NCBI RefSeq assembly: GCF_050589645.1
Contig: NZ_JBNGOQ010000003.1
Coordinates: 392,277 to 456,276, forward strand
Direction of reading: 5' to 3'
Length of the DNA: 64,000 bases
Source: Eudoraea algarum
Lineage (GTDB): Bacteria > Bacteroidota > Bacteroidia > Flavobacteriales > Flavobacteriaceae
How positions within the stretch are numbered: the first letter of the stretch is position 1; every line of letters begins with the position of its first letter. Both the position numbers and the translations under genes were made by a program. The notes beneath the pieces were generated by a model. The model did not search any database, was not told where the DNA came from, and worked only from the letters and a program-made list of their open reading frames with translations. Positions 8,750 to 51,300 of this stretch are shown here, one piece after another.

Positions 8750-10156
8750 CTATGAGTTTACAGTTTCTAAAATCCAAGTCGATATTGCTTGCAAAGCAGC
8801 AGGGTTAAAAGTTTCCTCTAGCTTTTGATATTCACTCATCTTACAGGAGTTGCATTTTTGGAAAAAGTGATTTAGACCTTCTAGTTCTTTGACCTTAAAG
8901 TTTTTTGTTTTTCCATTCTTTAAGGCTTTTTCGATAGCGATTAAATGAATATCTGCAGGTACCTGTATGTCTTTTGAGCCATTGATTGCTAGTACTGAAC
9001 ATTTTACTTTTTTGAACTCCTCTGCGGGATTGTAACTGTAGAAATATCGGGACCAAGGAGTGACCCTAGATTCTACTAATCCTTTGATGTTTTCATCTGT
9101 TTTTTCTTTTGAACCTAGCATTGGTCTTAAAATTGGCGCAATAGTTTTTTGATAATGTGCCGTCAGTTCTGTCTTTATTTTCTCGATATCGCCTCTTTGA
9201 GATGCGATTTTTATAGCTTCTCGAATGGCATCTTCATAGGCTTTTTCACTTGGTACAGGAAAGGGTCTTAAGTTTTTTGAAACTATTAACGATGTTTCAC
9301 TACCTTGAATACCGGCGCCAGCAAGACTTACTATGAAAGCTACATTCTTCTTCATTCTGTTGGCTACCATAGGCGCTATAATAGCACCTTCACTATGTCC
9401 AATCAGACCAATTTCACCTACATCATTTCTGGTTAATAAATATTCAACCGCACATTCAACATCGCTTGCAAAATCAGCTGTGGTAGCTGTTGAGAAGTCG
9501 CCGGTGGATTTGCCAAACCCTCTGTCATCAAAACGAAGTACTGCTATACCCTGGTTAGTAAGGTGGTCGGCTAAAACTAGAAATGTCTTATGACCAAAAA
9601 CCGTTTGGTCTCTATCTTGACCGCCACTTCCGCTAATGAGTACAACAGCTGGAAACTTAGAACCTTCCTTTGGCTTGGTGAATGTACCAGCCAGTTTTAC
9701 ATTTGCTGCTTCATTTTCAAACGACACATTTTCGGAGAGATATGGATATGGTTTTTTCGGTTCTTGGGGTTTTCCACTTCCTTCAATTTCCACTTGTTCT
9801 CCTTCCTTTCTTTTTAATGTAAGGGGTATTTTATTAGCACCTTCCTGAAATTTTCCTTCAAATTCATTTTTACTGTCATTATATTTTCCCCGATAACCCA
9901 TTCCAAGATTGGAACCATCTACGATAAGTTCACCATCCGAAAATGTGGTTTGTTTAGGTTTAAGACCTTCCACCCTTTGTGAAGGGATGGAAACTGTAGT
10001 GCTCAATTCACCATTTATTTCCTCAATGTCGAATATGAAAACGATTTCCTTGCCTTTTCCAAGAGTCACTTTGCCTTGCCAGACACCTGATATTTCTTGG
10101 GCATGAATTACTGTTGTTGTTATAAGCATTAATGCTATTCCTATTGTGTTTTTCAT
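8750..10156 (-). CDS. Secreted alpha/beta hydrolase with an N-terminal lipocalin-like domain
   Basis: Signal peptide; GxSxG nucleophile elbow (LIGHSEGAIIAP). Confidence 0.6.
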   Translation of the reverse strand: MKNTIGIALMLITTTVIHAQEISGVWQGKVTLGKGKEIVFIFDIEEINGELSTTVSIPSQRVEGLKPKQTTFSDGELIVDGSNLGMGYRGKYNDSKNEFEGKFQEGANKIPLTLKRKEGEQVEIEGSGKPQEPKKPYPYLSENVSFENEAANVKLAGTFTKPKEGSKFPAVVLISGSGGQDRDQTVFGHKTFLVLADHLTNQGIAVLRFDDRGFGKSTGDFSTATTADFASDVECAVEYLLTRNDVGEIGLIGHSEGAIIAPMVANRMKKNVAFIVSLAGAGIQGSETSLIVSKNLRPFPVPSEKAYEDAIREAIKIASQRGDIEKIKTELTAHYQKTIAPILRPMLGSKEKTDENIKGLVESRVTPWSRYFYSYNPAEEFKKVKCSVLAINGSKDIQVPADIHLIAIEKALKNGKTKNFKVKELEGLNHFFQKCNSCKMSEYQKLEETFNPAALQAISTWILETVNS

Positions 10157-29342: not shown

Positions 29343-29356
29343 CGTTCTGCTTGTAG

Positions 29357-29430
29357 TGACCTCGACAGGATTCAAACCTGTAACCTTCTGAGCCGTAATC
29401 AGATGCGCTATTCAGTTGCGCCACGAGGCC
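29357..29430 (-). tRNA. tRNA-Arg (anticodon ACG)
   Basis: 74-nt cloverleaf folded by hand: acceptor GGCCTCG/CGAGGTC, D-stem GCGC/GCGC, anticodon stem TCTGA/TCAGA with loop TTACGGC, T-stem ACAGG/CCTGT with T-loop TTTGAAT; CCA not encoded. Confidence 0.85.
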
Positions 29431-34219: not shown

Positions 34220-35245
34220 CTAATTTGCTAGAGCTTCTATATTTGCGGATTTTACCGTTTTAATAATCCTACCGGCTATTTTGTACGGATCTCCGTTTGA
34301 AGCGGGCCTACGATCTTCCAACCATCCTTTCCATCCTTTTTCTACCGTAATAATAGGAATCCGAATAGATGCGCCCCTATCCGAAACCCCGTAACTAAAG
34401 TCCTTAATGGAAGCGGTTTCGTGCAAGCCAGTAAGTCTTTCATTATTAAAGGCACCATATACGTCGATGTGGTCAATGGCTACAGGTCTAAAGGCCTCAC
34501 ATATTTTTTCGTAGATTTCCTTGGAACCACAGGTTCGTAAGGTAGTATTGGAGAAGTTGGCGTGCATCCCGGAACCGTTCCAATCGCCTTTTACCGGCTT
34601 AGGATGTAATTCAATATAGTATCCGTACTTCTCGGTAAGCCTATTTAACAAATATCTGGCAACCCAAATTTCGTCCCCGGCTTTTTTCGCCCCTTTGGCA
34701 AAACATTGAAATTCCCACTGCCCCGGTGCAACCTCCTGGTTGATACCTTCAATATTGATTCCTGCTGCTATACACAGATCCATATGCTCTTCAACAAAAT
34801 CCCTTCCCCATGTATATCTACCTCCTACGGAACAGTAGTATTTGCCCTGTGGTCCGGGAAACCCACCTCTAGGGAATCCTAGGGGTAAATCTGTTTCGGT
34901 ATCCATTAGGAAGTATTCCTGTTCAAAGCCAAACCAGAAGTCATTATCATCATCGTCTATGGTAGCTCTGTAGTTGGAGGGGTGAGGATTGCTATCCGAG
35001 TCTAAAACTTCACACATGACCAAAAAACCATTGGCTCTTTCCGGATCTGGAAAAATGGCAACAGGTTTTAAAAGACAATCCGAAGATCCACCCTCTGCCT
35101 GTTCCGTAGAGCTCCCGTCAAAAGACCATATCGGGCAATCTTCCAATTTGCCACCAAAATCTTCTTCAATTTTCGTTTTACTTCTCAACTCCTGAGTTGG
35201 TTGATGCCCATCTAACCAGATATACTCTAATTTAGTTTTACTCAT
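34220..35245 (-). CDS. glnII: Glutamine synthetase type II (eukaryote-like GSII)
   Basis: 341 aa; GS beta-grasp plus catalytic domain (LEYIWLDGH...; DRGASIRIP). Confidence 0.75.
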   Translation of the reverse strand: MSKTKLEYIWLDGHQPTQELRSKTKIEEDFGGKLEDCPIWSFDGSSTEQAEGGSSDCLLKPVAIFPDPERANGFLVMCEVLDSDSNPHPSNYRATIDDDDNDFWFGFEQEYFLMDTETDLPLGFPRGGFPGPQGKYYCSVGGRYTWGRDFVEEHMDLCIAAGINIEGINQEVAPGQWEFQCFAKGAKKAGDEIWVARYLLNRLTEKYGYYIELHPKPVKGDWNGSGMHANFSNTTLRTCGSKEIYEKICEAFRPVAIDHIDVYGAFNNERLTGLHETASIKDFSYGVSDRGASIRIPIITVEKGWKGWLEDRRPASNGDPYKIAGRIIKTVKSANIEALAN

Positions 35246-35456: not shown

Positions 35457-37643
35457 ATGTCTAGAACCAGATTTGACGCTATCGCGGAAAGCCATAAGAG
35501 AAATCGTATAAACATTGAGGAAAAAGGAAGACGTTCGGAACTTTTTGGACAAAACGTGTTCAACGAAGAACGGATGCTGCAGTACCTTACCAAGGAAGCA
35601 CATAGCAGCGTTAAAGCGGCCATTTTTTCCGGCTCCAAGATCGATCGAAAAATTGCGGACCAGGTGGCCGAGGCCATGAAGACATGGGCCATTTCTATGG
35701 GAGCTACGCATTATACACATTGGTTTCAGCCCCTTACCGGAGCAACGGCCGAAAAACACGATGCTTTTTTTGACCTATTGCCCAACGGCAAGGGGATGGA
35801 AAAGTTTGGTGGTGGCCAATTGGTACAACAAGAACCCGATGCCTCCAGTTTTCCCAGTGGCGGCATCCGGAACACTTTTGAAGCCAGGGGTTATACCGCC
35901 TGGGACCCGACCTCCCCTGCATTTATCTACGGGACAACCCTCTGTATTCCCACGATTTTTGTATCCTATACGGGAGAGGCCCTGGACAATAAGGCACCAC
36001 TGCTTAGGGCACTGCACGCGGTTGATGAAGCCGCAACGGCCGTTGCCAAATATTTTGACAAAAACGTTACAAAAGTAAATGCCACCTTGGGCTGGGAACA
36101 GGAATATTTCTTGGTAGACAAGGCCCTGGCCCATTCCCGCCCCGATATCATTATGACCGGCCGTACCCTTATAGGCCATTCGGCCGCTAAGGGGCAACAG
36201 CTGGATGATCACTATTTTGGGGTCATACCAAACCGGGTGATACGATTTATGAGCGATTTGGAACAGGAATGCACAAAATTGGGCATACCGGTAAAGACCC
36301 GACATAATGAAGTGGCTCCCAACCAGTTTGAATTGGCACCCGTTTTTGAAGAGGCCAACTTGGCGGTAGACCATAACCTATTGCTGATGGATGTCATGGA
36401 AAAAGTGGCCGACAAGCACAGTTTTAAGGTGCTTTTTCATGAAAAGCCCTTTGCGGGCATTAACGGTTCCGGGAAGCACAACAATTGGTCGTTGGCTACG
36501 GATACCGGGGTCAATCTGCTAAGTCCGGGTTCTACCCCAATGAAGAATCTACAATTTCTCACCTTTTTCGTAAACACGATCAAGGCGGTGGATACGTATG
36601 AGGAATTGTTGAGGTCCTCCATTGCCTCGGCCAGCAATGACCACAGGTTAGGAGCCAATGAAGCACCGCCCGCTATTTTGTCCATTTTTATCGGCGCCCA
36701 ACTAAGTGATGTCTTGGATGAACTGGAGGGGGTGTCCCAAGGAAAATTATCGCCCCAGGAAAAGACGGAATTGAAACTGAACGTAGTGGGCAAGATTCCG
36801 GAGATCCTTTTGGACAATACCGATCGGAACCGCACCTCGCCCTTCGCCTTTACCGGCAACAAGTTCGAAATGCGGGGCGTGGGGTCTAAAACGAATTGTG
36901 CCAAACCCATGACCATCCTAAATGCGATCATGGCCAAACAATTGATTGCCTTCAAAAAGGAGGTGGATATCCTTATGGACAAGAAAAACCTGAAAAAGGA
37001 CGAAGCGGTCTTTAACGTACTTAGAGAGTACATAAAAACCTCCAAGCGGATTCGTTTTGATGGGGACGGGTATAGCACTGAGTGGGAAAAGGAAGCTAAA
37101 AGAAGAAAGTTGAGCAATAATAAAAATACACCTGAAGCCCTGCAGGTACTTACCTCTAAAGCGAGCTTGGAACTCTTTAAATCCATGGATGTCATGAGCG
37201 AGGTGGAAGTTAAGGCTAGACAAGAGGTAGAGTTGGAAGCCTATATCTTTCATATACAGATAGAAGGACGTGTGTTCAACGAAATCGTCAACAACCACAT
37301 CCTACCATCTTCAATTGCCTATCAGAACAAGCTGATTGACAACGTGACCGGACTTAAGGAGATTTTTGGAGCGGCCCACAAGAAGCTGTCCGACGGGCAG
37401 CTAACCATTATAGAACAAATAGCCGAACATATTGCTGAAGTAAAGAAAAAGGTGGATGCTATGACCGATGCCAGAAAAAGTGCCAATACCATTACGAATA
37501 TCGATAAAAAGGCAAGGGCCTATTGCGATAATGTAAGGCCCTACTTTGACGAGATTCGATACCATTGCGATAAATTGGAGCAGTTGGTGGACAATCAAAT
37601 ATGGCCCCTCACCAAATACCGGGAACTCCTGTTCATAAAGTGA
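35457..37643 (+). CDS. glnN: Glutamine synthetase type III
   Basis: 728 aa; GSIII-like N-terminal and catalytic regions; divergent from glnII. Confidence 0.8.
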   Translation: MSRTRFDAIAESHKRNRINIEEKGRRSELFGQNVFNEERMLQYLTKEAHSSVKAAIFSGSKIDRKIADQVAEAMKTWAISMGATHYTHWFQPLTGATAEKHDAFFDLLPNGKGMEKFGGGQLVQQEPDASSFPSGGIRNTFEARGYTAWDPTSPAFIYGTTLCIPTIFVSYTGEALDNKAPLLRALHAVDEAATAVAKYFDKNVTKVNATLGWEQEYFLVDKALAHSRPDIIMTGRTLIGHSAAKGQQLDDHYFGVIPNRVIRFMSDLEQECTKLGIPVKTRHNEVAPNQFELAPVFEEANLAVDHNLLLMDVMEKVADKHSFKVLFHEKPFAGINGSGKHNNWSLATDTGVNLLSPGSTPMKNLQFLTFFVNTIKAVDTYEELLRSSIASASNDHRLGANEAPPAILSIFIGAQLSDVLDELEGVSQGKLSPQEKTELKLNVVGKIPEILLDNTDRNRTSPFAFTGNKFEMRGVGSKTNCAKPMTILNAIMAKQLIAFKKEVDILMDKKNLKKDEAVFNVLREYIKTSKRIRFDGDGYSTEWEKEAKRRKLSNNKNTPEALQVLTSKASLELFKSMDVMSEVEVKARQEVELEAYIFHIQIEGRVFNEIVNNHILPSSIAYQNKLIDNVTGLKEIFGAAHKKLSDGQLTIIEQIAEHIAEVKKKVDAMTDARKSANTITNIDKKARAYCDNVRPYFDEIRYHCDKLEQLVDNQIWPLTKYRELLFIK

Positions 37644-37712: not shown

Positions 37713-38939
37713 GTGGGCTTTTTTTATGGATTGCCCTATTTTTGCCCCAAACTGCATAAGATGGGTTCGTCCAATAGTAAAAGATATGATTTAAGAGGGG
37801 TTTCGGCCTCCAAAGAAGAGGTGCACAAGGCCATAGAAAATATTGATAAGGGTCTTTTTCCAAAAGCCTTTTGTAAAGTGGTGCCTGATTATCTCACCAA
37901 CGATGATGCTTACTGTCTGATTATGCATGCCGATGGTGCCGGAACCAAATCTTCCTTGGCCTATATGTATTGGAAGGAAACCGGGGATATTTCGGTTTGG
38001 AAGGGCATCGCCCAGGATGCCCTGATCATGAATGTGGACGATCTGCTCTGCGTGGGGGCCACAGATCACATCATGTTGTCCTCCACCATTGGTCGAAATA
38101 AAAATTTGATACCCGGAGCGGTCATAGCAGCCATAATACAAGGTACCGAAGAGCTCATTTCGGATTTGTCCGCTCACGGCATTACCATACACTCCACAGG
38201 TGGGGAGACGGCAGATGTGGGCGATCTGGTACGTACCATCATCGTAGATTCAACGGTTACTGCACGCATCAAAAGGGCCGATGTCATAGACAATGCCAAC
38301 ATACAGGCGGGCGATGTGATCGTTGGTCTTGCTTCCTTTGGCCAGGCCTCTTATGAAAAGGAGTACAACGGCGGGATGGGCAGTAACGGACTCACTTCTG
38401 CCCGGCACGACGTGTTTGCCAAGTACTTGGCGAAAAAATACCCCGAAAGTTATGATGCCGCGGTGCCCGAGGCCCTGGTTTATTCAGGAAACAAGAAATT
38501 GACAGACAAAGTACCCGAAGCTCCCCTTGATGCAGGTAAATTGGTGCTATCGCCCACAAGGACCTACGCTCCGATCATTAAAAAGATCCTTTCGGAATAC
38601 ACGGCAGAAACCATTCACGGAATGATACATTGCAGTGGTGGCGCTCAGACCAAAATCCTCCATTTTATAGACCAATTGCATATCATTAAGGACAATATGT
38701 TCCCGATGCCTCCGCTGTTTCGTTTAATACAGGAGCAATCTGGTACCGAATGGAAGGAAATGTACCAGGTTTTTAACTGCGGTCACCGGATGGAATTATA
38801 TGTAAACGAGGCCATTGCGGAAGATTTGATCGCTATCTCGGAAAGTTTTGGTGTGGCCGCCAAAGTAGTGGGCAAAGTGGTACAAAATCCACACAAAAAG
38901 CTCACGATACAAAGTGAATATGGCACCTTTGTATATTAA
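37713..38939 (+). CDS. AIR synthase-related (PurM-like) protein of unknown function; alternative start at 37761
   Basis: PurM-like N- and C-terminal domains (DALIMNVDDLLCVGA...). Confidence 0.55.
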   Translation: MGFFYGLPYFCPKLHKMGSSNSKRYDLRGVSASKEEVHKAIENIDKGLFPKAFCKVVPDYLTNDDAYCLIMHADGAGTKSSLAYMYWKETGDISVWKGIAQDALIMNVDDLLCVGATDHIMLSSTIGRNKNLIPGAVIAAIIQGTEELISDLSAHGITIHSTGGETADVGDLVRTIIVDSTVTARIKRADVIDNANIQAGDVIVGLASFGQASYEKEYNGGMGSNGLTSARHDVFAKYLAKKYPESYDAAVPEALVYSGNKKLTDKVPEAPLDAGKLVLSPTRTYAPIIKKILSEYTAETIHGMIHCSGGAQTKILHFIDQLHIIKDNMFPMPPLFRLIQEQSGTEWKEMYQVFNCGHRMELYVNEAIAEDLIAISESFGVAAKVVGKVVQNPHKKLTIQSEYGTFVY

Positions 38940-38993
38940 GGTATACGAATCCCCCAATTCCTACGTTGTTTTAATAATTAAGCCCCTTATGCT

Positions 38994-39437
38994 ATGGAAA
39001 GAAAAACGTTTTTAAAAAACTTGGGCGCGGGAGCGGCTTTTGCCGTAGTTTTCCCTTGCCTTCACGGATGCTCCAGCAGTGGAAGCGATGATGTGGCACC
39101 GGAAGATATGAAACCTATACCCACCGGAGTTGATTTTACGATCGATTTGAACACCTCCGAAGGCGCTGGACTGCAGAACAACGGCGATTTTATTCTGAAG
39201 GACTTTGTGGTGGTCGTTAAGAACTTAGAGGGTCAGTTTGTAGCGGCCAGTCAGGTTTGCAGCCATCAACAGACCGAAGAGGTGCGTTTTCTTGAGGAAA
39301 ACGGTGGTATTTACCGATGCTCTACCCATGGTGCCCGCTTTGATCAGCAAGGAGCTCCGTTGAACAGTGTAACTCCCAATCCGCTGAAAATCTTCAATAC
39401 TGAATTGAACGGTACTATTTTACGTGTTTTTGAATAG
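38994..39437 (+). CDS. Rieske [2Fe-2S] domain lipoprotein, probably Tat-exported
   Basis: CSHQQ...CSTHGARF Rieske boxes; N-terminal RKTFLKNLGAGAAFAVV Tat-like motif; lipobox LHGCSS. Confidence 0.65.
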   Translation: MERKTFLKNLGAGAAFAVVFPCLHGCSSSGSDDVAPEDMKPIPTGVDFTIDLNTSEGAGLQNNGDFILKDFVVVVKNLEGQFVAASQVCSHQQTEEVRFLEENGGIYRCSTHGARFDQQGAPLNSVTPNPLKIFNTELNGTILRVFE

Positions 39438-39472
39438 ACACATCCCAATAAAAGTACTTATAACCTACTCAT

Positions 39473-39907
39473 ATGAAACATAGTATTCTAATTACCGCCC
39501 TTTTGTTTTCGTGCTGTCTTTTGGGACAGGACTGGAAAGGAAACTACGCCGAGGCACTTTTGGCTTCAAAGCAAGAGAGCAAGCCCTTGGTGCTGGTCTT
39601 TTCAGGTTCGGATTGGTGTGGCCCGTGCAAACGACTTGATCGGAATATTTGGCAATCGGAAGCCTTTAAGGCCTACGCCTCGCAGCACTATATTCTCTAC
39701 AATGCAGATTTTCCAAGAAAGAAAACGAACAAACTGCCTGAAGAGAAGATAAATGCCAACAAACAACTGGCCGAGCGTTATAACCCAAAGGGACATTTCC
39801 CCTTGGTTCTGGTCCTCAACGGTCAGGAAGAGGTCTTGGGCAAGACCGGATATGAAAAAGTCTCACCAGACGCCTATTTATCTCTTCTAAATTCCTTTAT
39901 AAAGTGA
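39473..39907 (+). CDS. Secreted thioredoxin-family protein (CGPC active site)
   Basis: Signal peptide; SGSDWCGPCKRL. Confidence 0.6.
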   Translation: MKHSILITALLFSCCLLGQDWKGNYAEALLASKQESKPLVLVFSGSDWCGPCKRLDRNIWQSEAFKAYASQHYILYNADFPRKKTNKLPEEKINANKQLAERYNPKGHFPLVLVLNGQEEVLGKTGYEKVSPDAYLSLLNSFIK

Positions 39908-40896
39908 GATTGAACCTTTCCCTATGCTTTTTTTTTCTTGCCCTTATATGTTTTGGTCAAGAAAATTATGTTACCGTTCATCGGAGCATGAAGCTGATGG
40001 GAAGCAGGTTCGAGATTACAGTGGTAGCGCCCAATGAGGAAATTGGCTATATCAACATCGAAGAGGCCGCCGCGGAAATCACCCGCATAGAAAAAATGAT
40101 ATCTTCTTGGGATGCGGAATCCGAAACTTCCGCAATCAACAAAAATGCCGGTATAAAACCGGTAAAGGTAAGTATGGAACTCTTCAAGCTCATTGAACGT
40201 TCCAAACAAATTTCGGAAATTACCGATGGTGCTTTTGATATATCCTATGCCTCTATGGACAATGTTTGGAAGTTCGATGGGACCATGAAATACCCGCCAA
40301 CGGAGACCGAGATCAAAAGATCCATCGCCAAGATAGGGCATAAAAAAATTATCCTCGATGCAGATGAACATACGGTCTTTCTGAGGCAAAAAGGCATGAA
40401 AATAGGTTTTGGGGCCATTGGGAAAGGGTATGCGGCCGATAGGGCCAAACAACTTTTGGTTTCCAAAAAGGTACGGGCAGGAATTATCAATGCTTCCGGA
40501 GATCTTACCACATGGGGCACCAAGGCCAGTGGGGAAAAGTGGCTTATCGGTATTGCCAATCCCTTGAGCAAGGATAAGATATTTTCGTGGCTCCCCGTCG
40601 TGGAATCCTCGGTGGCCACCTCCGGGAACTATGAAAAATACGTGACCTTTAGGGGACAGAAATATTCGCATATCATCGACCCCAGGACAGGCTATCCCTC
40701 AAAAGGAATCAACAGCGTTTCCATTTTTTCCAAAAGCGCGGAACTATGTGATGCCCTGGCCACTTCGGTATTTATCATGGGAAGGGATGCAGGTATGGCC
40801 CTTATCAATCAGCTTAGGGGTACCGAAGTGATTATCGTGGACAGCGCAAATAAAATTCATAAAAGCAATGGTATCCTGTTCGATAATAATCAGTAA
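39904..40896 (+). CDS. apbE: FAD:protein FMN transferase (ApbE family)
   Basis: ApbE-like sequence throughout (..GFGAIGKGYAADRA..; ..ATSGNYEKY..); overlaps the thioredoxin gene by 4 nt. Confidence 0.75.
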   Translation: MRLNLSLCFFFLALICFGQENYVTVHRSMKLMGSRFEITVVAPNEEIGYINIEEAAAEITRIEKMISSWDAESETSAINKNAGIKPVKVSMELFKLIERSKQISEITDGAFDISYASMDNVWKFDGTMKYPPTETEIKRSIAKIGHKKIILDADEHTVFLRQKGMKIGFGAIGKGYAADRAKQLLVSKKVRAGIINASGDLTTWGTKASGEKWLIGIANPLSKDKIFSWLPVVESSVATSGNYEKYVTFRGQKYSHIIDPRTGYPSKGINSVSIFSKSAELCDALATSVFIMGRDAGMALINQLRGTEVIIVDSANKIHKSNGILFDNNQ

Positions 40897-41116
40897 TTTT
40901 AAAAGGATGAAGAAATTGGTATTGCTATTGGTCCTTGCCGTTTTTTGCACCTCCTGCGTTGTGGTCAAAGAATACGAGAAGGTGTATATTAACGATGACG
41001 AGATGTTGCTTTCCGCCAAAGGCACAGAACGATTTGAAACCAATTTTCAAATCTACCGGGAAGCGGCTTCGGGAGCCAATGGAGGAAAAACAGGGGGTGG
41101 TTGTGGCTGTAATTAA
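40868..41116 (+). CDS. DUF4266-like small lipoprotein (C-terminal GGGCGCN)
   Basis: Lipobox VFCTSC; conserved C-terminal GGC motif; overlaps apbE by 29 nt. Confidence 0.5.
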   Translation: MVSCSIIISNFKRMKKLVLLLVLAVFCTSCVVVKEYEKVYINDDEMLLSAKGTERFETNFQIYREAASGANGGKTGGGCGCN

Positions 41117-42404
41117 GCACGTAAAAGGGAAATTACCCCTGGGCGTCCTGCTGTTCATTTCTTACCTGGGTTTCTCTCAGGCGGGCCAGCAGACCTATAC
41201 CACTAGGGTCTTGGAAGCTGCGGAAATTGATCTGTTGTTCAGCTATTATGATCAGGACGGGCAGAATGCGGCCGTAACCGGGGGAGAAGGTACCGAAGAA
41301 CTTACGGATGCAACCTCGAGCATCGTTGTAAAAATACCCATGAATGCAAATGACGTGCTTACCGTAGATGTGGGCATATCTGCCTATACCTCGGCCTCAT
41401 CAAGCAATGTAAACCCACTGGATGGCAATGCCAACGACCCAGTAAGTCCGTTCATCGCCTCTTCGGGGGCATCCAGGAAGGATCAACTGGCCTATTTTAA
41501 ACCTTCGTATCAGCACAGTTCTTCTGACCGCAACACCTTGTGGACAGCCAACGCCTACGTCTCCAACGAATATGACTACTTCTCCATAGGTTTTGGTGCG
41601 GGGTATACGCGCTTGTTCAATGAAAGAAACACCGAGCTCGGGATAAGTGCCCAAGTATATCTGGACAAATGGAATTCGCAGTATCCGATAGAGTTAAGGG
41701 GTGTTTTTTTTGATGACCGAATTACCGGCAATGGAACGTATAATCCACAATTCACTGAATTTCAGGATGAAACACGTAATTCCTACAGCATATCCCTTAG
41801 TTTTTCCCAAATTTTGGGGAAACGGTGGCAGGGTGCTTTGTTTGCGGATATTGTATCCCAGAACGGTTTGTTGAGCACGCCCTTTCAACGGGTTTATTTT
41901 GGTGATGTGGAAGATTTCTTTATAGACGACTTCCAGTTGGCGGATGATGTGGAACGTCTTCCCGATAGCCGCTTTAAGTTGCCCATTGGGGGCCGATTGA
42001 ACTATTATTTGAACGATGTAGTGGTCCTACGGGGGTATTACAGATATTATATGGACAATTGGGGGATACACGGGCATACCGCCAGTTTGGAAGCACCCAT
42101 AAAATTAAGTGATAAGTTTACACTGTACCCCAGTTATCGGTATTATACGCAGACCGCTGCCGATTACTTCTTCAGTAAGGAAGGGGCTGTATCCACCCTG
42201 GAATTTTATACCTCGGACTACGACCTGTCTGCCTACGATGCCAATCAATACGGTATGGGTATCCGATACAAGGATATTTTTGCCAACACCAAACTTTTCT
42301 CTTTTGGGCTCAAAACTATCGATCTTCGAGTAAACCAATACGACCGTAGCGATGGGCTAAGTGCTTTTATTGTTACCCTGGGCACTACTTTTGTAGGAAA
42401 TTAA
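41079..42404 (+). CDS. DUF3570-like protein (predicted outer-membrane beta-barrel). The ORF-track start at 40935 overlaps the DUF4266 gene out of frame; the likely start is 41079.
   Basis: Signal-like LPLGVLLFISYLGFSQA; alternating beta-strand pattern; C-terminal aromatic residue. Confidence 0.5.
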   Translation: MEEKQGVVVAVIKHVKGKLPLGVLLFISYLGFSQAGQQTYTTRVLEAAEIDLLFSYYDQDGQNAAVTGGEGTEELTDATSSIVVKIPMNANDVLTVDVGISAYTSASSSNVNPLDGNANDPVSPFIASSGASRKDQLAYFKPSYQHSSSDRNTLWTANAYVSNEYDYFSIGFGAGYTRLFNERNTELGISAQVYLDKWNSQYPIELRGVFFDDRITGNGTYNPQFTEFQDETRNSYSISLSFSQILGKRWQGALFADIVSQNGLLSTPFQRVYFGDVEDFFIDDFQLADDVERLPDSRFKLPIGGRLNYYLNDVVVLRGYYRYYMDNWGIHGHTASLEAPIKLSDKFTLYPSYRYYTQTAADYFFSKEGAVSTLEFYTSDYDLSAYDANQYGMGIRYKDIFANTKLFSFGLKTIDLRVNQYDRSDGLSAFIVTLGTTFVGN

Positions 42405-42520
42405 CATCTTCCCGACCCCGTAAGATCGGACGCACAAAACCAAGGGTTTTTCTTAGGCGGTTCGGATCTGCTTGAAGCTATAAAAAAATCGTAAATTCGC
42501 AATCCAAGTGTAGATCGCAT

Positions 42521-43597
42521 ATGTTAGATAAATTAAACATTGTAAAACAACGTTTCGATGAGGTGTCGGACCTCATTATCCAACCCGATATCATATCGGA
42601 CCAGAAACGCTATGTACAGTTGAACAAGGAATATAAGGATCTCAAGGTCCTTGTGGACAAACGTACACAATACGTGGAGCTGACGGATAATATTAGCGAG
42701 GCAGAGGAAATAATTTCGGACGGAAGCGATGCCGAGATGTTGGAAATGGCCAAAATGCAGTTGGAAGAGGCCAAAGCGGCCTTACCCGTTCTGGAAGAGG
42801 AAATAAAATTTTTACTGATTCCCAAAGATCCTGAGGACGCCAAGAACGTGGTGGTAGAGATACGCGCGGGCACAGGGGGAGACGAGGCCAGTATTTTTGC
42901 CGGCGATCTGTTCCGCATGTATACCAAATATTGTGAGTCCAAAGGATGGAAAACGAATGTGATCGATCTTAGCGAGGGTACCAGTGGTGGATTTAAGGAA
43001 ATACAATTCGAGGTAAGCGGAGAGGACGTGTACGGTACCTTAAAATTTGAGGCCGGAGTACATCGGGTGCAGCGCGTACCACAGACTGAGACACAGGGTA
43101 GGGTACATACCAGCGCAGCAACGGTCATGGTGCTTCCGGAAGCCGAAGATTTTGACGTGCAGATAGATCCCAAGGATGTGCGGATAGATTTTTTCTGTTC
43201 CTCAGGTCCTGGCGGGCAGTCGGTAAACACGACCTATTCAGCGGTACGTCTTACCCATGTCCCCACAGGTTTGGTAGCGCAGTGCCAAGACCAAAAGTCG
43301 CAACATAAAAATAAGGAAAAGGCCTTTAAGGTATTGCGATCGCGGCTCTATGATCAGGAACTGGCAAAAAAACAGGAAGAGGATGCCGCCAAACGAAACT
43401 CCCAAGTAAGCAGTGGCGATCGTTCGGCAAAAATTAGAACCTACAACTACCCACAGGGCAGGGTTACGGACCATCGAATAGGACTTACCCTTTATGATCT
43501 GACCAACATTGTTAACGGGGATATTCAAAAGATTATCGATGAGCTGATGCTTGTAGAAAATACCGAAAAACTAAAGGAGGCCTCGGAAATTTTTTGA
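42521..43597 (+). CDS. prfA: Peptide chain release factor 1
   Basis: GGQ motif ([11 protein letters not shown]) and RF1-type PQT tripeptide region ([18 protein letters not shown]). Confidence 0.85.
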
Positions 43598-45505: not shown

Positions 45506-45711
45506 TGAATGTAAATTGCAGCTCCGAATGACTTTGATAGCTAATTCAAATAATTACTCTAAAAAATGAGACAGAAGTTTTTTTAGAACATGTTCCGGAG
45601 CTGCTTTACATTTATTAGGTTACTTATCTCAAAGTAACATACTCTTTGCATACGTTGGGGAAAGGCTTATCAAGATTTACCGTTCCGATAAAAGTTTACG
45701 TTACGTTTACC
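45506..45711. repeat. Copy A of a ~210-bp repeat family (internal IR GTAAATTGCAGCTCC...GGAGCTGCTTTACATTT; conserved CAAAGTAACA and TTCCGATAAAAGTTTACGTT blocks), abutting the left edge of the GC-rich SusCD block
   Basis: About 75-80% identity to copy C over about 200 bp, same orientation. Confidence 0.65.
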
Positions 45712-45790
45712 AAAAACCTTCCGTTTGTCGAGAATTTTGGAGGTTAAGCGCCGTTACTCCGCTATACATGGACTTTTCAAGCGATGCAAA

Positions 45791-46480
45791 TCACGACGCT
45801 TTGAAATAGAAATCGAGCAGTTTTACCAGGTCCTCCCTTTTGTAGGGGTCCAGTTTCTGTTTTTTGATGTGCTTTTCCATTTCCCCGGCCCGTTCCCCGA
45901 ACAGGGGCACCAGGTTCTTCCGCTTGCGGGGCAGTTCCACCACCTCGCCCTCGGGGCCCAGCCCCTGGAGGTAGAAACGGGCGCCCTCGCGCTTGAACTT
46001 GGCGGGCACGTCCTGTTCGTAGCTGCTCTTGGCGGGCTTCTTGGGCACGAACTTGATGTTCTCCTTGAAATAGAGCGTGTAGCCCTCGCCGCGGTGCAGC
46101 CTTTCGAAGAAGGTGGTCTGCAGTTTTCCGCGCTCGTCCCTGTAGGGCCTGGTCTCGAACCAGCGGCCGGAGCCGTCCAACAGGGCTATGCGGTAGGGGG
46201 TGGAGCGGTCCAGTCCCATGACCTCGCCGTTCTCCCTCTTGATCTCGATGCTGTTCTCCACCACGTTGAAGCGCAGCAGCTGTACCTTTTCCATGCCGTT
46301 TATGCGGGCCGACACGAACTCCTCCAGGAGGTAGCGCGAGCCCTCGGCCTCGTCGTAGATCGGGTTGTTGGTGCCCACGAAGAAGGCGAGCTCGTTGAAG
46401 GTCTCGTTGTTGGGCCGCTGTATCTGCCCCTGGGCCGAAAGGCCTGCAAGGCACAGGGCAAGGAGGATCGTTCTTTTCAT
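45791..46480 (-). CDS. Secreted hypothetical protein (K/E-rich), last gene of the GC-rich SusC-SusD operon
   Basis: Signal peptide MKRTILLALCLAGLSAQ; the longer overlapping ORFs on both strands are high-GC artefacts. Confidence 0.45.
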   Translation of the reverse strand: MKRTILLALCLAGLSAQGQIQRPNNETFNELAFFVGTNNPIYDEAEGSRYLLEEFVSARINGMEKVQLLRFNVVENSIEIKRENGEVMGLDRSTPYRIALLDGSGRWFETRPYRDERGKLQTTFFERLHRGEGYTLYFKENIKFVPKKPAKSSYEQDVPAKFKREGARFYLQGLGPEGEVVELPRKRKNLVPLFGERAGEMEKHIKKQKLDPYKREDLVKLLDFYFKAS

Positions 46481-46565
46481 ATCTAGATCGGTTTAGGGTT
46501 AAAATATAGGGACCACCAAAAACCGTGCCTTGGTGGTCCCATTCCTATATCAGTTCCGCTAGCTC

Positions 46566-47996
46566 CTAGAAGGTTCCGGGATTCTGCGTGATGTTCGGAT
46601 TGTTGGTGGTCTCATCGTCCACGATGGGGAAGATCACCTTGTCCGCACCGGGTGCCGACTCGGGACCGCCACCTGGGCGAAGGTTCAGGCCGTTCCTCAA
46701 GAGGTCCATCCTACGGTGGCCCTCGAAACAGAGTTCCTTCCTTCTTTCCAGACTGATGGCGTCAAGGTCCAGATTGCCCGCGGTAAGGTCGGCAAGGCCG
46801 GCCCTGCTACGCAGCGTGTTGATGTCGGCCAGGGGCGTGGCGCCCACAGAGGTGCCTGCCCTAAAATTGGCCTCGGCCCTGTTCAGGTACATCTCCGTGA
46901 CCCTTACCCCCATACCATCGGAGGCATTGTCCACCACATCGTTGTACTTGGTGGTGAAGAAGGTATTGTTGCCCCCTGCATCGGTGGCCGCTACGGACAG
47001 TTCGTCGAACCTTCTGTCCCCGGGCTCTGCATTAAAGGCATCGATCAGGTCCTGGCTAAAGGGCGCATCGCCCCGTCCTCCGGGGGAGGCGTTGTAAAAG
47101 TTCACGTACACCTCGTCGGAACCCGGTACCGATTCGTCCTGGGGACCGTCGGTCGGGGTATTGATCACCACGAACAGGTGCTCCGAGGAGGTTTCCGCGT
47201 TGTTATAGAAATCGTAGTTGGCCGCCAAGGGGTGGTTGCCCGCCGCGATCACCTGGTTGGCCAGATCGGCCGCCCCGGCCCAGTTCTCCCTGTAGAGGTA
47301 CAACCTGGACAAAAGACCCTGGGCAGAAGCCTGCTCGGCCCGCTCGCCGTTGTCCACCGGAAGGTCCGCTATGGCGTCCAAAAGGTCCTGCTCTATAAAA
47401 GCGTGCACCTCGTTCACCGTGGAACGCTCCAATTGGAACTCGGATATCTCGCCCCCTTCGAAGGGCTGCGAAACGATCGGTACCCCAAGGTTGGTGCCCC
47501 CGCTGAACTGGTAGGGCTGTGCAAAGAGGTTCACCAATTGGAAATAAGTGTACGCACGTAGGAACTTGGCCTCGGCTACGAATACGGCTTTTGTGGCCTC
47601 ATCCAGCCCGTTGATCTCCGCCGGATCTACGGGCGGAAGGTTCACGATTACATTGTTGGCGGCCCCGATCAGTTCATAGGCATCCAACCAGATGTTGTCT
47701 ATCGTCGTATTGGTGGCCAGGGTCTCGAACTGGTCCACTTCCTGGAGTGAAGGGAAACTTCCCACGAAATTCACGTTGTCCGACATGAAGTCCGACATCA
47801 GCTGCGGATTCCCGTTCAGGTCACCGCTCTGGTTCTTACTGTAGACCCCGACGACGGCACCGTTGATCGTGGCAAAGGTGCTGAAGATTGTACTGGAGGC
47901 CACATTGTTCTCCGCAACCACGTCCAATCGGTCCTCGCACGAAACGATCATGAGAAGTCCAAAGAGTGCTGCTATTGCTTTATTTGTTTTTTTCAT
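46566..47996 (-). CDS. susD: RagB/SusD family nutrient-uptake outer-membrane lipoprotein
   Basis: Lipobox MIVSCED; SusD-like length and TPR-like N-terminal region; directly downstream of susC. Confidence 0.8.
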   Translation of the reverse strand: MKKTNKAIAALFGLLMIVSCEDRLDVVAENNVASSTIFSTFATINGAVVGVYSKNQSGDLNGNPQLMSDFMSDNVNFVGSFPSLQEVDQFETLATNTTIDNIWLDAYELIGAANNVIVNLPPVDPAEINGLDEATKAVFVAEAKFLRAYTYFQLVNLFAQPYQFSGGTNLGVPIVSQPFEGGEISEFQLERSTVNEVHAFIEQDLLDAIADLPVDNGERAEQASAQGLLSRLYLYRENWAGAADLANQVIAAGNHPLAANYDFYNNAETSSEHLFVVINTPTDGPQDESVPGSDEVYVNFYNASPGGRGDAPFSQDLIDAFNAEPGDRRFDELSVAATDAGGNNTFFTTKYNDVVDNASDGMGVRVTEMYLNRAEANFRAGTSVGATPLADINTLRSRAGLADLTAGNLDLDAISLERRKELCFEGHRRMDLLRNGLNLRPGGGPESAPGADKVIFPIVDDETTNNPNITQNPGTF

Positions 47997-48010
47997 TGCT
48001 CTATTTTTTA

Positions 48011-51000
48011 TTAAAATGTTAAACGTGCCCCGAACGAATAGGACTTGGCCTGTGGTGCGGTAAAGAATGTTTCTCCTTGGAACAAGGGATCGATATCATC
48101 GGTCACCTCGGGGTCTATCCCGTCCAGTTCGTCCCCTTTAATGGTGAATAGGTTGGTTGCCGTGGCATAGAGCCTAAGCCCGGTAATGAAACCGCCAAGT
48201 CTTTCCAGGGCCTTCTCGGGAAGGTTGTACCCCAGGGTGATGTTCTTGATCCTCAGATAGGAGCCGTCCAACTGCTGCTGGGTAGAACGCTGGTTGAACA
48301 AGTTAAAGGTAGAACTGTTTGGGCTTGGCAAAAAGGCGTTGTCGCCCGGCTGCCTCCAGATGTTCAGGTTCTGCCTCCTGATGTTCACTATGCCCCCGAT
48401 GGCGTCGTTACCGTCGGCAAAACGAAGGCCGTCAATTACTATTTCATTACCATAGGAGTAGTTCATCAGTACGGACAGGTCAAAGTCCTTGTACTTGAAG
48501 GTATTGGTCATACCCCCTGAGAAATCGGGAAGCGGGCTTCCCGTGACCACACGGTCTCCCGAGCCTGGATTAGTGGTAATGTTTCCATTGGCATCCAACC
48601 ATTCGGCGTCCCCGGTCTGGGAGTTGATGCCCACGTAACGGATCAGGTAGAAGTTGTTCAGGGATTCCCCTTCGATGGCCCTTTGAATGGCCCCGTCGAT
48701 GATCCTCCTGCCCTGTGGGTCCGTCGCGGCGTCCTCGTTGAGACGGAGCACCTTATTCTCTATCGTGGTCAGGTTGAAGTTGGTACGCCACTCGAAGTTC
48801 TCGGAGCGTACGTTAACCGTGCTCAGTTCAAACTCCCAACCTTTGTTCTCCATCTCGCCGATGTTCCTGCTGATCGAGGTAAAACCGGTCTGTGGTGGCA
48901 ATATCTGGTTCAGCAAAAGGTCGCTGGTGGTCTTCTTGAAGTACGAGGCGTTGAAATTGATGCGCCCGTTCAAAAAGGTCGATTTGATACCGATGTCCAG
49001 CGTCTCACTTTCCTCCCATTTGATGTCCGCATTTTCAGGTTGGTTGGGTACGGCCCCGGATTCCCCGTTGTAGTCCCCGAAACCTCCGATACTGAAGAGC
49101 CCGAGCGATGGGAAGGTCCCCAAGCGGTCGTTACCCACCGTACCGATACTGGCCCGGACGGAGAGATAGTCAATAAAGTCGATGTCCTGGACAAAGGGTT
49201 CCTCGGAGATTACCCAGCCCGCGGCCGCGGACCAGAAGTACCCGAAACGCACATCTGGCTGGAAACGGGAGGACCCGTCACGTCTTATGGATCCCTCCAC
49301 AAGGTACTTGCCCTTGTAGTCATAGGATACCCTGGAAAAGAGCCCGAAAAGGCGGGTCGGGAAACGGTCCCCGTTCAATACGGTGGCCGTAGCCCCTGCG
49401 CCGAGGTTCCTAAGGACATCGTCCAAAAATCCGGTCGCGGAAACGTTCAATCTGGACCTGAGGGTCTCCTCATAGTTCAGTCCGAGAAGAACCGATAGGT
49501 TGTGGTCCTCACCATAGGTGTCGGAGTAGTTTATCGTCTGGTTGGTAAGATATCTTTCCTCCCTTACGCTCACTACCTGTGCCGATCCACCGGGCGTGTT
49601 GAAGTCCGCATTTCTAAGTGTTTCTTCAAGGTCGAGCCTGTCGATACCGAACTCGGAACGCCAGGTAAGCCCCTCGATAGGGGTGATCTCGGTATAGGCG
49701 TTCCCGATTACACGAAAGGTCTTCAGCTCGTCCGTGTTCAGGGCCACCCTCGCAAAGATGTTCGGGATAAAGGAGCCCGACTGCGCGAAGTTGCCCTCGT
49801 CGTCAAAGGCCGCTACCACCGGGCTCTGAAGGAAGGCTGTTGTGAAGGGTGCGTTGATACTGTTCTCCACACTTACCCTGTTGAGGCGGTTGTTGGTGAC
49901 CCCCAGGTTCATCCCGACCTTCAGCCATTCCTGGACGTCCGAATCGATGTTGATCCGCGCCCCGGCCCGTTGCTGGTCGTTGCCGATGATAAAGCCTTGG
50001 GTGTCCTGGTAGTCCATACCAAAGAAGAAGCTGGTCTTCTCGCCACCGCCCCTTACGCCAAGGTTGTAGTTTTGTGATACGCCCGTGCGCTGTACCCCGC
50101 CGAGCCAGTCCGTCCCCCCGGAACCGATGGCGCCAAGGCCAAGGGATTCTGGTGTTACCGTGGTGCCGCCGTTCTGTATGGTGGCCACTTCCGACTTGAA
50201 CTGTCGGAACTCGTCCGCGGTCAGGATGTCCGGAACGTCGGTAGACTGCGAGTACTGTGTGCTCACGTCAAAGGTCACCTGGGCGGCGGAGTTCCTGCGG
50301 CCCTTCTTGGTGGTGATCAGGATTACCCCGTTGGCGCCCCTGGACCCGTAGATCGAGGTCGCACCGGCATCCTTAAGTACGGTGAGCGACTGGATGTCGT
50401 TCGGGTTCACGTAGGAGAGCGGGTTGATCCCGGTGTTCCCCCCACGGTTGAGCGTGTTGCCCGCGGTATCGGTGATGGGCACCCCATCGATCACGATAAG
50501 GGGCTGGCTACCCGCGTTGATCGAGTTTACGCCCCGTACACGTATAACGGCGGCAGAACCGAGAACACCCGAGGCGTTCACGATCTGGGTACCGGCGCTC
50601 TGCCCCTGTAGGAGCTGATCGGCCGAGACCACCTGGAGGTTCTCAATGGCCTCCTCTTTTACGATACCGATGTTCTGGATAATCTTTTTCTCCTCTTGGT
50701 TACCGTAACCAATAACGACCACCTCTTCCAAGGCCTCCGCATCTTCCTGCATCGTTACATTGATGACATCCGAAGCGCCTACAGTGCGCTCAACGGTTGT
50801 TTGTCCTAAATAGGAATAAACAAGAACATCCCCTGAGCTTGCCTGGATAGCATAGTTGCCATCAAAATCAGTTTGTGTTCCCGTGGAAGTTCCTTTTACC
50901 ACAATGTTCACCCCAGGTAAGGGTAAGCCTCCTTCATCCGTAACGGTACCGGAAACTGTTTTTTCTTGTGCATATGCCATAGACATCCCAAATAGGAATA

Positions 51001-51031
51001 GCATACACAGCCAAATACATTTTTTTTTCAT
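48011..51031 (-). CDS. susC: SusC/RagA family TonB-dependent outer-membrane receptor
   Basis: N-terminal carboxypeptidase-regulatory-like domain, plug (TonB box region), NYNLGVRGGGEKTSFFFGMDYQDTQGFI SusC signature, C-terminal ...ARLTF. Confidence 0.85.
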   Translation of the reverse strand: MKKKCIWLCMLFLFGMSMAYAQEKTVSGTVTDEGGLPLPGVNIVVKGTSTGTQTDFDGNYAIQASSGDVLVYSYLGQTTVERTVGASDVINVTMQEDAEALEEVVVIGYGNQEEKKIIQNIGIVKEEAIENLQVVSADQLLQGQSAGTQIVNASGVLGSAAVIRVRGVNSINAGSQPLIVIDGVPITDTAGNTLNRGGNTGINPLSYVNPNDIQSLTVLKDAGATSIYGSRGANGVILITTKKGRRNSAAQVTFDVSTQYSQSTDVPDILTADEFRQFKSEVATIQNGGTTVTPESLGLGAIGSGGTDWLGGVQRTGVSQNYNLGVRGGGEKTSFFFGMDYQDTQGFIIGNDQQRAGARINIDSDVQEWLKVGMNLGVTNNRLNRVSVENSINAPFTTAFLQSPVVAAFDDEGNFAQSGSFIPNIFARVALNTDELKTFRVIGNAYTEITPIEGLTWRSEFGIDRLDLEETLRNADFNTPGGSAQVVSVREERYLTNQTINYSDTYGEDHNLSVLLGLNYEETLRSRLNVSATGFLDDVLRNLGAGATATVLNGDRFPTRLFGLFSRVSYDYKGKYLVEGSIRRDGSSRFQPDVRFGYFWSAAAGWVISEEPFVQDIDFIDYLSVRASIGTVGNDRLGTFPSLGLFSIGGFGDYNGESGAVPNQPENADIKWEESETLDIGIKSTFLNGRINFNASYFKKTTSDLLLNQILPPQTGFTSISRNIGEMENKGWEFELSTVNVRSENFEWRTNFNLTTIENKVLRLNEDAATDPQGRRIIDGAIQRAIEGESLNNFYLIRYVGINSQTGDAEWLDANGNITTNPGSGDRVVTGSPLPDFSGGMTNTFKYKDFDLSVLMNYSYGNEIVIDGLRFADGNDAIGGIVNIRRQNLNIWRQPGDNAFLPSPNSSTFNLFNQRSTQQQLDGSYLRIKNITLGYNLPEKALERLGGFITGLRLYATATNLFTIKGDELDGIDPEVTDDIDPLFQGETFFTAPQAKSYSFGARLTF

Positions 51032-51066
51032 ACTTTAAGTTTTAATTAAGTTAGTCTCGTACGTCT

Positions 51067-51300
51067 TGAATTAAACTGTAAGCGTAGGCCCATAGGACTT
51101 AAAGCCAGGGAAACCTACCGTTCCCAAAAAAGTGAGAATTAAGAGTGCTGTTTCTAAATTTTGGAAGTAAGTGTCTCAGAGCTACTTTACATTTAATTAG
51201 TCATACGGCCCAAAGTAACATGCTCTTTGCCTGTTTTAAGGAAAGTCTTATAAACGTTTACTTTTCCGATGAAAGTTTACGCTTTTTTTACGCCTACCGT
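51067..51300. repeat. Copy B (degenerate) of the ~210-bp repeat family, in the susC upstream region
   Basis: Shares the ..GAGCTACTTTACATTTAATTAG..CAAAGTAACATGCTCTTTGC..TTCCGATGAAAGTTTACGC.. blocks with copies A and C. Confidence 0.55.

Follow-up and report, generated by a model that had tools for sequence, protein, structure and literature searches.

Which redox system is encoded by the run of five genes at positions 38994-42404 of a 64-kb stretch of the Eudoraea algarum genome (hereafter the window), and which protein does its ApbE, an FAD:protein FMN transferase (FAD, flavin adenine dinucleotide; FMN, flavin mononucleotide), modify? An initial annotation of this DNA had read the five co-directional open reading frames (ORFs), all on the (+) strand, as a Rieske protein, a thioredoxin with a CGPC motif, ApbE, a DUF4266 protein and a DUF3570 protein, and had proposed that they make up an undescribed system. 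Pfam searches of the ~46 larger ORFs, which together with the 64-kb stretch itself define the scope of all window results given here, and motif reading confirmed the five families, and the reading as an extracytoplasmic redox and flavinylation module was supported. The cluster type, however, had already been published: the four genes at 39473-42404 very probably are a member of the ApbE/DUF3570 clusters that Méheust et al. described in 2021 (eLife 10:e66878, PMC8238504) when they sought substrates of 'orphan' ApbE genes.

In that study (PMC8238504), 543 clusters combined ApbE and DUF3570 with a thioredoxin-like PF13899 protein and DUF4266, 227 of them with and 316 without DsbD. DUF3570 was found to bear two conserved [S/T]GA[S/T] motifs, and the DUF3570 of Chlorobium luteolum, despite being insoluble, was flavinylated by its cognate ApbE, the signal being abolished only by mutating both serines. 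The authors noted a C-terminal CXC in DUF4266, proposed a hybrid thioredoxin/flavin relay fed by DsbD, reported VIT1 in 25 clusters and left the function open; neither Rieske proteins, nor the barrel fold, nor the loop position of the flavins are discussed in their paper. A 2023 preprint also mentions a DUF4266/DUF3570/TlpA neighbourhood, and our literature search returned no later paper adding functional data on DUF3570 clusters. The E. algarum locus shares with the published clusters the same four Pfam families (PF02424, PF12094, PF13899 and PF14086) in tightly packed, co-directional genes for exported proteins. ApbE, a DUF3570 with two conserved serine acceptor motifs, and a PF13899 protein accompanied by a DUF4266 with the C-terminal CXC, the features by which cluster membership is judged, were all found. 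The locus differs from the published type in its first acceptor motif, which is TSAS rather than [S/T]GA[S/T], and in the small Rieske lipoprotein gene directly 5', of which the paper makes no mention; a co-localised DsbD (PF02683), which is optional, was not found in the window, as in 316 of the 543 published clusters. The system is thus an ordinary member of an already known kind of cluster.

The initial annotation had further suggested that the substrate of ApbE is one of the two DUF proteins. For DUF3570 this is borne out by the flavinylation of its homologue (PMC8238504). The protein (PF12094, E = 2e-35) is encoded at 41079-42404 (+), within an ORF open from 40935, and its residues are numbered here from codon 41121 (GTA, not a start) as a convention only. 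The IASSGAS motif singled out earlier as flavinylation-like is present and its serine is invariant; it includes the second of two flavinylation-type motifs, S-S-G-A-S118 (41460-41474, +), a canonical SGAS. The first, Y-T-S-A-S93 (41385-41399, +), is likewise invariant at its acceptor serine and had been missed. A92, S93 and S118 did not vary in 74 diverse DUF3570 sequences or in an alignment of 140, the family motifs being [ST]-S-A-S93 and S-[SG]-A-S118, and by their position S93 and S118 appear to correspond to the C. luteolum flavinylation sites. The second position of motif 1 is Ser in place of the consensus Gly, as in most Bacteroidota homologues. Six residues before motif 1 the family frequently has an Asp, as in the classical Dxx[st]gA[ST]; in this protein the residue is Ser. 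The family's most conserved stretch, by column counts, is the block YYxQDGxxxAVTGGxGTE, with Q45, G47 and G55 invariant in the 74 sequences, whose QDGxxxAVTGGxGTE portion (41253-41297, +) falls in loop 1 of the predicted barrel. The AVTGG within it was considered as a flavinylation site and rejected, its acceptor position being variable. No invariant Cys or His was found in the 140-sequence alignment, which leaves the flavin as the sole evident cofactor of DUF3570.

To locate these sites in the protein we turned to an AlphaFold2 model computed from the 140 sequences (predicted local distance difference test score, pLDDT, 86.5; predicted template-modelling score, pTM, 0.82). It comprises 16 long antiparallel strands joined alternately by 4-residue turns and long loops. 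DUF3570 shows all the hallmarks of outer-membrane beta-barrels, namely a signal peptide, an even number of closing strands, and short turns opposed to long loops, and this confident model agrees with the initial annotation of an outer-membrane beta-barrel of about 440 aa: DUF3570 (441 aa from ATG 41079) is predicted to be a 16-strand outer-membrane barrel. Motif 1 lies directly after strand 3 and motif 2 directly before strand 4, and the acceptor serines thus sit one at each end of the strand 3-4 loop, the second long loop, in which residues 94-117 were modelled at pLDDT <50. Outer-membrane barrels usually have a periplasmic N-terminus and carry their short turns on the periplasmic side; with this topology the flavin loop would be placed at the outer rim or in the barrel lumen. 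Conservation of the long loops is unusually high, an indication that they are packed within the barrel. The likeness to the 16-strand barrels BcsC, PelB, PgaA and the Omp85-type CdiB/FhaC is one of fold class only (8-14% sequence identity); unlike them, DUF3570 lacks TPR and POTRA domains, and its neighbourhood holds no genes for polysaccharides or two-partner secretion. NqrC/RnfG and NqrB/RnfD resemble it in being extracytoplasmic redox proteins that receive FMN covalently from ApbE at a hydroxyl residue within an [S/T]GA[S/T]-type motif. DUF3570, however, is a predicted 16-strand barrel rather than an FMN_bind domain or an inner-membrane subunit, its acceptors are serines with two sites in one loop, and no Nqr/Rnf subunits were found among the ~46 larger window ORFs.

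The second DUF protein is a 69-aa DUF4266 lipoprotein (40907-41116, +, in an ORF from 40868; PF14086, E = 8e-19). In an alignment of 80 sequences its lipobox Cys17 (40955-40957), a YRE, a GANGGK and the terminal GGGCGCN (41093-41113) were invariant. It always adjoins DUF3570 and is a core component. The x-G-A-N that follows YRE (41069-41080, residues 55-58) resembles the ApbE motif [ST]GA[ST] and always ends in Asn. The EAASGAN initially noted as flavinylation-like is therefore real and conserved, but we rejected it as an acceptor site: its last residue is Asn in all 80 homologues, and Asn is unable to accept FMN in phosphoester linkage; the part of the initial proposal that allowed DUF4266 as the ApbE substrate falls with it.

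Upstream of these genes are the thioredoxin and ApbE. The former, a secreted DsbH-like thioredoxin-fold protein of 144 aa (39473-39907, +; Thioredoxin_7, PF13899, E = 6e-14), carries its CGPC at 39617-39628 (+). Its nearest solved chain is DsbH (2ju5, E = 7e-20), and it matched the NCBIfam DsbH model NF043050 with 87.2 bits (E = 1.3e-24) against a cut-off of 190; it is therefore a relative of DsbH and not an equivalog. With the DsbD-dependent reductive thioredoxins (Chlamydia DsbH, 2ju5, and the CcmG/DsbG type) it shares a secretion signal and a CxxC motif, but it is presumed to act on a CxC lipoprotein or a flavoprotein and not on misoxidised proteins. ApbE (39904-40896, +; 330 aa, GTG start, N-terminal signal peptide; PF02424, E = 3e-84) is closest among solved FAD:protein FMN transferases to 7esa (E = 1.6e-47). 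The thioredoxin gene adjoins ApbE in nearly all loci that we collected, and in a Chitinophagales metagenome-assembled genome the two are fused in a single 476-aa protein (locus L082, 6181-7611) directly 5' of DUF4266-DUF3570, which supports a functional link between thioredoxin and ApbE.

The spacing of the genes is close. The thioredoxin stop and the ApbE GTG start overlap by 4 nt, and a 10-nt gap separates ApbE from the DUF4266 start at ATG 40907, which we chose from the conserved MKK start in the homologue alignment. DUF3570 has start candidates at ATG 41079 (441 aa, as the database protein has it), GTG 41097 and GTG 41103, and overlaps DUF4266 by 14-38 nt according to the one chosen. A 35-nt gap lies between the Rieske and thioredoxin genes. 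The co-directional, tightly packed arrangement initially described as an operon with 4-29 nt overlaps therefore stands, and the overlap figures do not.

We next asked how widely these genes occur together, the check suggested by the initial annotation. Species-representative genomes were scanned for DUF3570 loci with a 12-sequence alignment, the 74-sequence one being too divergent, and neighbours were compared ORF by ORF with phmmer. This yielded 80 Flavobacteriaceae DUF3570 loci, in which thioredoxin-ApbE-DUF4266-DUF3570 is present wherever the contig permits; across Bacteroidota the core recurs in ~90 loci. In 39 of the 80 a Rieske gene lies directly 5', and these 39 share one flank of glutamine synthetase, type III glutamine synthetase and PurM-like genes and a second flank of PrfA and PyrF. 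Among 36 non-syntenic loci of at least 10 kb (57-63% DUF3570 identity) the core was found in 34, in varied flanks, and no Rieske gene was found within ~10 kb of these 36 modules. In distant contexts 8 of 10 loci have the core, the hosts being chromosomes of Pontibacter, Chitinophagales, Saprospiraceae, Roseivirga and Phaeodactylibacter and three Cytophagales megaplasmids; for one locus (L177) an incomplete PLSDB gene table shows thioredoxin and DUF3570 genes only. Of the five genes whose neighbourhood conservation was in question, then, four recur as a core, and the Rieske gene adjoins that core in one syntenic lineage and in Roseivirga.

The flanks of these other modules bear on what the module may do. 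The commonest neighbour in the 36 non-syntenic loci, directly 5' in 7-8 of them, is a CzcA-OEP fusion with a membrane-fusion protein. In Pontibacter (L081) RND pumps stand beside the module together with VIT1 and a P-type ATPase; such pumps also occur at L083 and L178. These metal-efflux neighbours hint at a role in metal homeostasis. In L057, L069, L071 and others the pair consists of a CzcA-type RND pump/outer-membrane factor fusion of ~1445 aa and a CusB/HlyD-type adaptor of ~380 aa. A DsbD gene lies directly 3' of DUF3570 in L048. Two loci (L083, 4464-6288; L172, 4312-6179) have an extracytoplasmic function (ECF) sigma factor and a 417-432-aa protein of no known family directly 5' of the thioredoxin gene; the larger proteins are homologous to each other (24% identity, E = 6e-11), and the pair may be a dedicated regulator pair.

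The Rieske gene, the first of the five, raised the question of whether it is a partner of this core or a neighbour. It encodes a 147-aa protein (38994-39437, +; PF00355, E = 1.6e-8) that by its sequence belongs to the Rieske [2Fe-2S] family, with both ligand pairs intact, C89-S-H91 (39258-39266, +) and C109-S-T-H112 (39318-39329, +). Its N-terminus, MERKTFLK...LHGC, has a lipobox Cys26; M-E-R-K, the lipobox Cys, CxH and CxxH were invariant in 14 homologues. The Rieske family and lipobox of the Tat-signal lipoprotein initially annotated were thus confirmed, and the Tat signal is Tat-like, with RK instead of RR. A scan of metagenomes with the Rieske alignment gave 79 loci, in 40 of which the stretch from Rieske to prfA was fully covered. 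Between the PurM-like gene and PrfA, 21 of the 40 intervals read Rieske-ApbE-PrfA, 11 have the full five-gene arrangement, 4 read Rieske-PrfA, 3 read Rieske-Trx-ApbE-PrfA (Trx, thioredoxin), and one (L141) has Rieske-Trx-ApbE followed by a 77-aa remnant of DUF3570. The remnant lies at 7897-8127, directly after ApbE and without DUF4266, and argues that the reduced arrangements arose by deletion; the same reduced forms occur in the complete genomes L089-L092. Ten further loci, like a 78%-identical Maribacter-type copy (L084/L085), have the Rieske gene in a setting unrelated to the module, beside an island with AraC, cytochrome c, HMA and multicopper oxidase genes. In L084/L085 (around 8001-8438) the gene stands alone between opposite-strand genes, and the island also holds porin-like, Band_7, SHOCT and DUF5676 genes, in what looks like a copper-stress context.

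We consider doubtful a five-component system in which the Rieske lipoprotein, exported by the Tat route, is an integral part and exchanges single electrons with the flavinylated DUF3570 module. The lipoprotein's gene is co-directional with the thioredoxin gene, 35 nt 5' of it with no promoter-like motif between; its predicted compartment is that of the module; it adjoins the module in 39 genome and 11 metagenome loci; and two-electron thiols could be linked to a one-electron FeS centre by way of a flavin. An independent juxtaposition also occurs in Roseivirga (L173, Cytophagales), where the order is Trx-ApbE-DUF4266-DUF3570-Rieske and a 138-aa homologue (9212-9628), 12 nt 3' of DUF3570, aligns with the window protein along its whole length at 40% identity (E = 8e-37) and shares the xRKxFLK start, the lipobox and the ligands. 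However, all adjacent Flavobacteriaceae cases share the glutamine synthetase, type III glutamine synthetase and PurM-like flank and the PrfA/PyrF flank, so that adjacency is inseparable from synteny. In 29 of the 40 metagenome intervals the Rieske gene stays although the module is reduced or gone, copies of 78-79% identity stand alone in other contexts, and no Rieske gene lies within 8-10 kb of 36 other Flavobacteriaceae modules or of 9 of the 10 distant ones, which speaks against an obligate five-gene unit. Distant homologues (31-33% identity in Emticicia and Fibrella) belong to other operons, alongside a DUF5777 barrel, YceI and cytochrome c, in keeping with a small one-electron carrier of general use in the periplasm. 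The Roseivirga case, being independent and in another gene order, leaves room for a facultative link. We conclude that the Rieske lipoprotein stands outside the core, as a syntenic neighbour that could at most be an optional one-electron partner. Around these homologues, the Roseivirga locus has a PepSY_like protein after the Rieske gene and an AhpC/redoxin gene on the opposite strand. On the Emticicia plasmid pEMTOL02 (L179, 4952-9574) the genes run in the order ECF sigma factor, outer-membrane barrel, Rieske, DUF5777 barrel, YceI and c-type cytochrome, and a Fibrella plasmid (L180, 3743-11183) combines Rieske with YceI, Dps, catalase and CusA/CzcA. The ECF sigma and 417-aa pair of the modules described above matches the similar pair of the Emticicia Rieske operon weakly (E = 0.002 over 87 residues).

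Transcription signals were also scanned. Sigma-70 promoter and terminator scans, ill-suited to Bacteroidetes, gave output at background level, and we therefore scanned for the Bacteroidetes -7 type pattern TAnnTTTG instead. It occurs 5' of the type III glutamine synthetase gene and of the PurM-like gene, where TATTTTTG (37737-37744, +; consensus match only) precedes the probable gene start, and was not matched 5' of the Rieske or thioredoxin genes; for that reason a single transcript may run from the PurM-like gene through DUF3570. No intergenic terminator-like site was found on the (+) strand at 38939-42521, in a scan whose output was at background level. In a shared run with no internal promoter motif or terminator, spacing binds the Rieske gene to the module no closer than to the cytoplasmic PurM-like gene.

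What, then, might the four-gene core do? We favour, with somewhat better than even confidence, an extracytoplasmic thioredoxin/ApbE/DUF4266/DUF3570 module working as a relay. In this proposal ApbE would put FMN on the two serines of DUF3570 while the barrel precursor, still unfolded, crosses the periplasm, and the flavin loop would then come to lie in the lumen of the barrel or at its outer rim. A DsbD-type membrane protein, its gene lying elsewhere, would bring in reducing equivalents from the cytoplasm, and these would pass to the CGPC thioredoxin, to the CxC of DUF4266, whose flexible Gly-rich tail could enter the barrel, and on to the FMNs. The FMNs would convert the two-electron chemistry of thiols and hand single electrons to an acceptor located at the outer membrane, plausibly a metal ion given the recurrent RND, VIT1 and ATPase neighbours. 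The electron path itself, from thioredoxin through DUF4266 and FMN to the acceptor, is tentative and, in our estimate, less likely than not. Bolder still, and improbable in our estimate, is that DUF3570 and the CxC tail of DUF4266 form a thiol-to-flavin electron conduit through the outer membrane, fed by DsbD/thioredoxin, serving reduction or homeostasis of a metal (Fe or Cu) and coupled to Rieske in some lineages.

Several observations weigh against the proposed relay, and they also bear on two other ways of reading the locus. Motif 1 is TSAS and not the published [S/T]GA[S/T], with the usual upstream Asp replaced by Ser. A Fulvivirgaceae locus (L175, 7119-9281) holds a DUF4266-DUF3570 pair with no adjacent ApbE or thioredoxin. 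The metal link is one of gene neighbourhood only. The electron source is assumed, since the window holds no DsbD and, in a DsbD search of all loci, one lay nearby in only 1 of ~170. ApbE, moreover, is retained in 25 of 29 syntenic intervals after loss of DUF3570, which means that it is not dedicated to the module and probably serves other substrates. One may accordingly suppose that the ApbE here does mainly housekeeping for a canonical substrate outside the window (e.g. NqrB/NqrC of Na+-NQR) and that the DUF genes share it, an explanation compatible with the four-gene relay and, in this strong form, unlikely in our view. Orthologous ApbE (56-75% identity) is kept between Rieske and PrfA in the 25 of 29 intervals without an intact DUF3570, and likewise in L089-L092; a 2025 review (PMC12174285) has NQR first appear in Bacteroidetes. 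Yet ApbE accompanies DUF3570 in unrelated Bacteroidota contexts, on plasmids and as the thioredoxin-ApbE fusion, a cognate ApbE flavinylates DUF3570 experimentally (PMC8238504), and there are no nqr or rnf genes among the ~46 larger window ORFs. The window ApbE probably also serves substrates encoded outside the window, with NQR the obvious candidate.

The other reading concerns the side of the membrane on which the flavins work, which the model does not fix, the two-serine loop having been modelled at pLDDT <50; this too counts against the outward relay. DUF3570 might be anchored in the outer membrane and face the periplasm, its flavin loop folding back through the lumen, with no electron transfer across the outer membrane; it would then take up or supply electrons in the periplasm, for example in thiol-redox buffering. 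A periplasmic location is predicted for ApbE, thioredoxin and DUF4266 alike, the flavin loop is in effect unmodelled, and the long loops of DUF3570 are unusually conserved for surface loops, suggesting packing inside the barrel. The standard topology, however, with a periplasmic N-terminus and 4-residue periplasmic turns, would put the flavin loop on the outer side. We hold a periplasm-facing DUF3570 to be about as unlikely as a mainly housekeeping ApbE, and retain the four-gene module with the proposed relay as the preferred explanation. In L175 a 219-aa protein without a Pfam match comes before the pair, and DUF4266-DUF3570 is the tightest unit of the module.

If the conduit existed, DUF3570 would be a flavin counterpart of porin-cytochrome complexes. 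The likeness to MtrAB/MtrCAB would be a functional analogy only, of an outer-membrane beta-barrel housing redox cofactors with possible outward electron passage; there is no homology, DUF3570 has flavin where they have multihaem and 16 predicted strands against 26, and transfer across the membrane is here a conjecture. As first put forward, the finding re-discovers a published cluster type and alone adds little. The module is nonetheless widespread, DUF3570 having >6,500 database matches and 1,438 representatives of 50%-identity clusters. New here are the prediction of a barrel that bears the two flavin sites on a single conserved loop, the thioredoxin-ApbE fusion, the recurrent metal-efflux neighbours, and the observation that Flavobacteriaceae lost the module step by step but kept ApbE and the Rieske gene. 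These additions offer handles for experiments on a possible flavin-based electron route at the outer membrane.

The surroundings of the module were also surveyed. No Nqr, Rnf, FMN_bind or DsbD domain was found by Pfam among the ~46 larger ORFs, and a phmmer search of the window with the DsbD membrane domain gave no match, so that, within the window, the initial statement of a missing canonical ApbE substrate stands. On its 5' side the module is flanked by two glutamine synthetases and a PurM-like, AIR-synthase-related gene, and on its 3' side by prfA and pyrF. The glutamine synthetases are divergent, a 341-aa short form at 34220-35245 (-) and a 728-aa type III form at 35457-37643 (+), and the pair is conserved together with the PurM-like gene in all syntenic loci. 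An Rfam scan found no riboswitch, its sole match being a tRNA, tRNA-Arg(ACG) at 29356-29430 (-). Base composition shifts sharply near 23.5 kb, from ~31% GC before to ~44% after, and a YHS-domain (metal-binding) protein is encoded at 821-1645 (-) inside the low-GC segment. GC content reaches 55-58% in a further segment at 45.7-51 kb (45700-51100), where a SusD/SusC pair (46566-51031) lies together with a 229-aa lipoprotein-like ORF. These composition segments may be islands or horizontally acquired.

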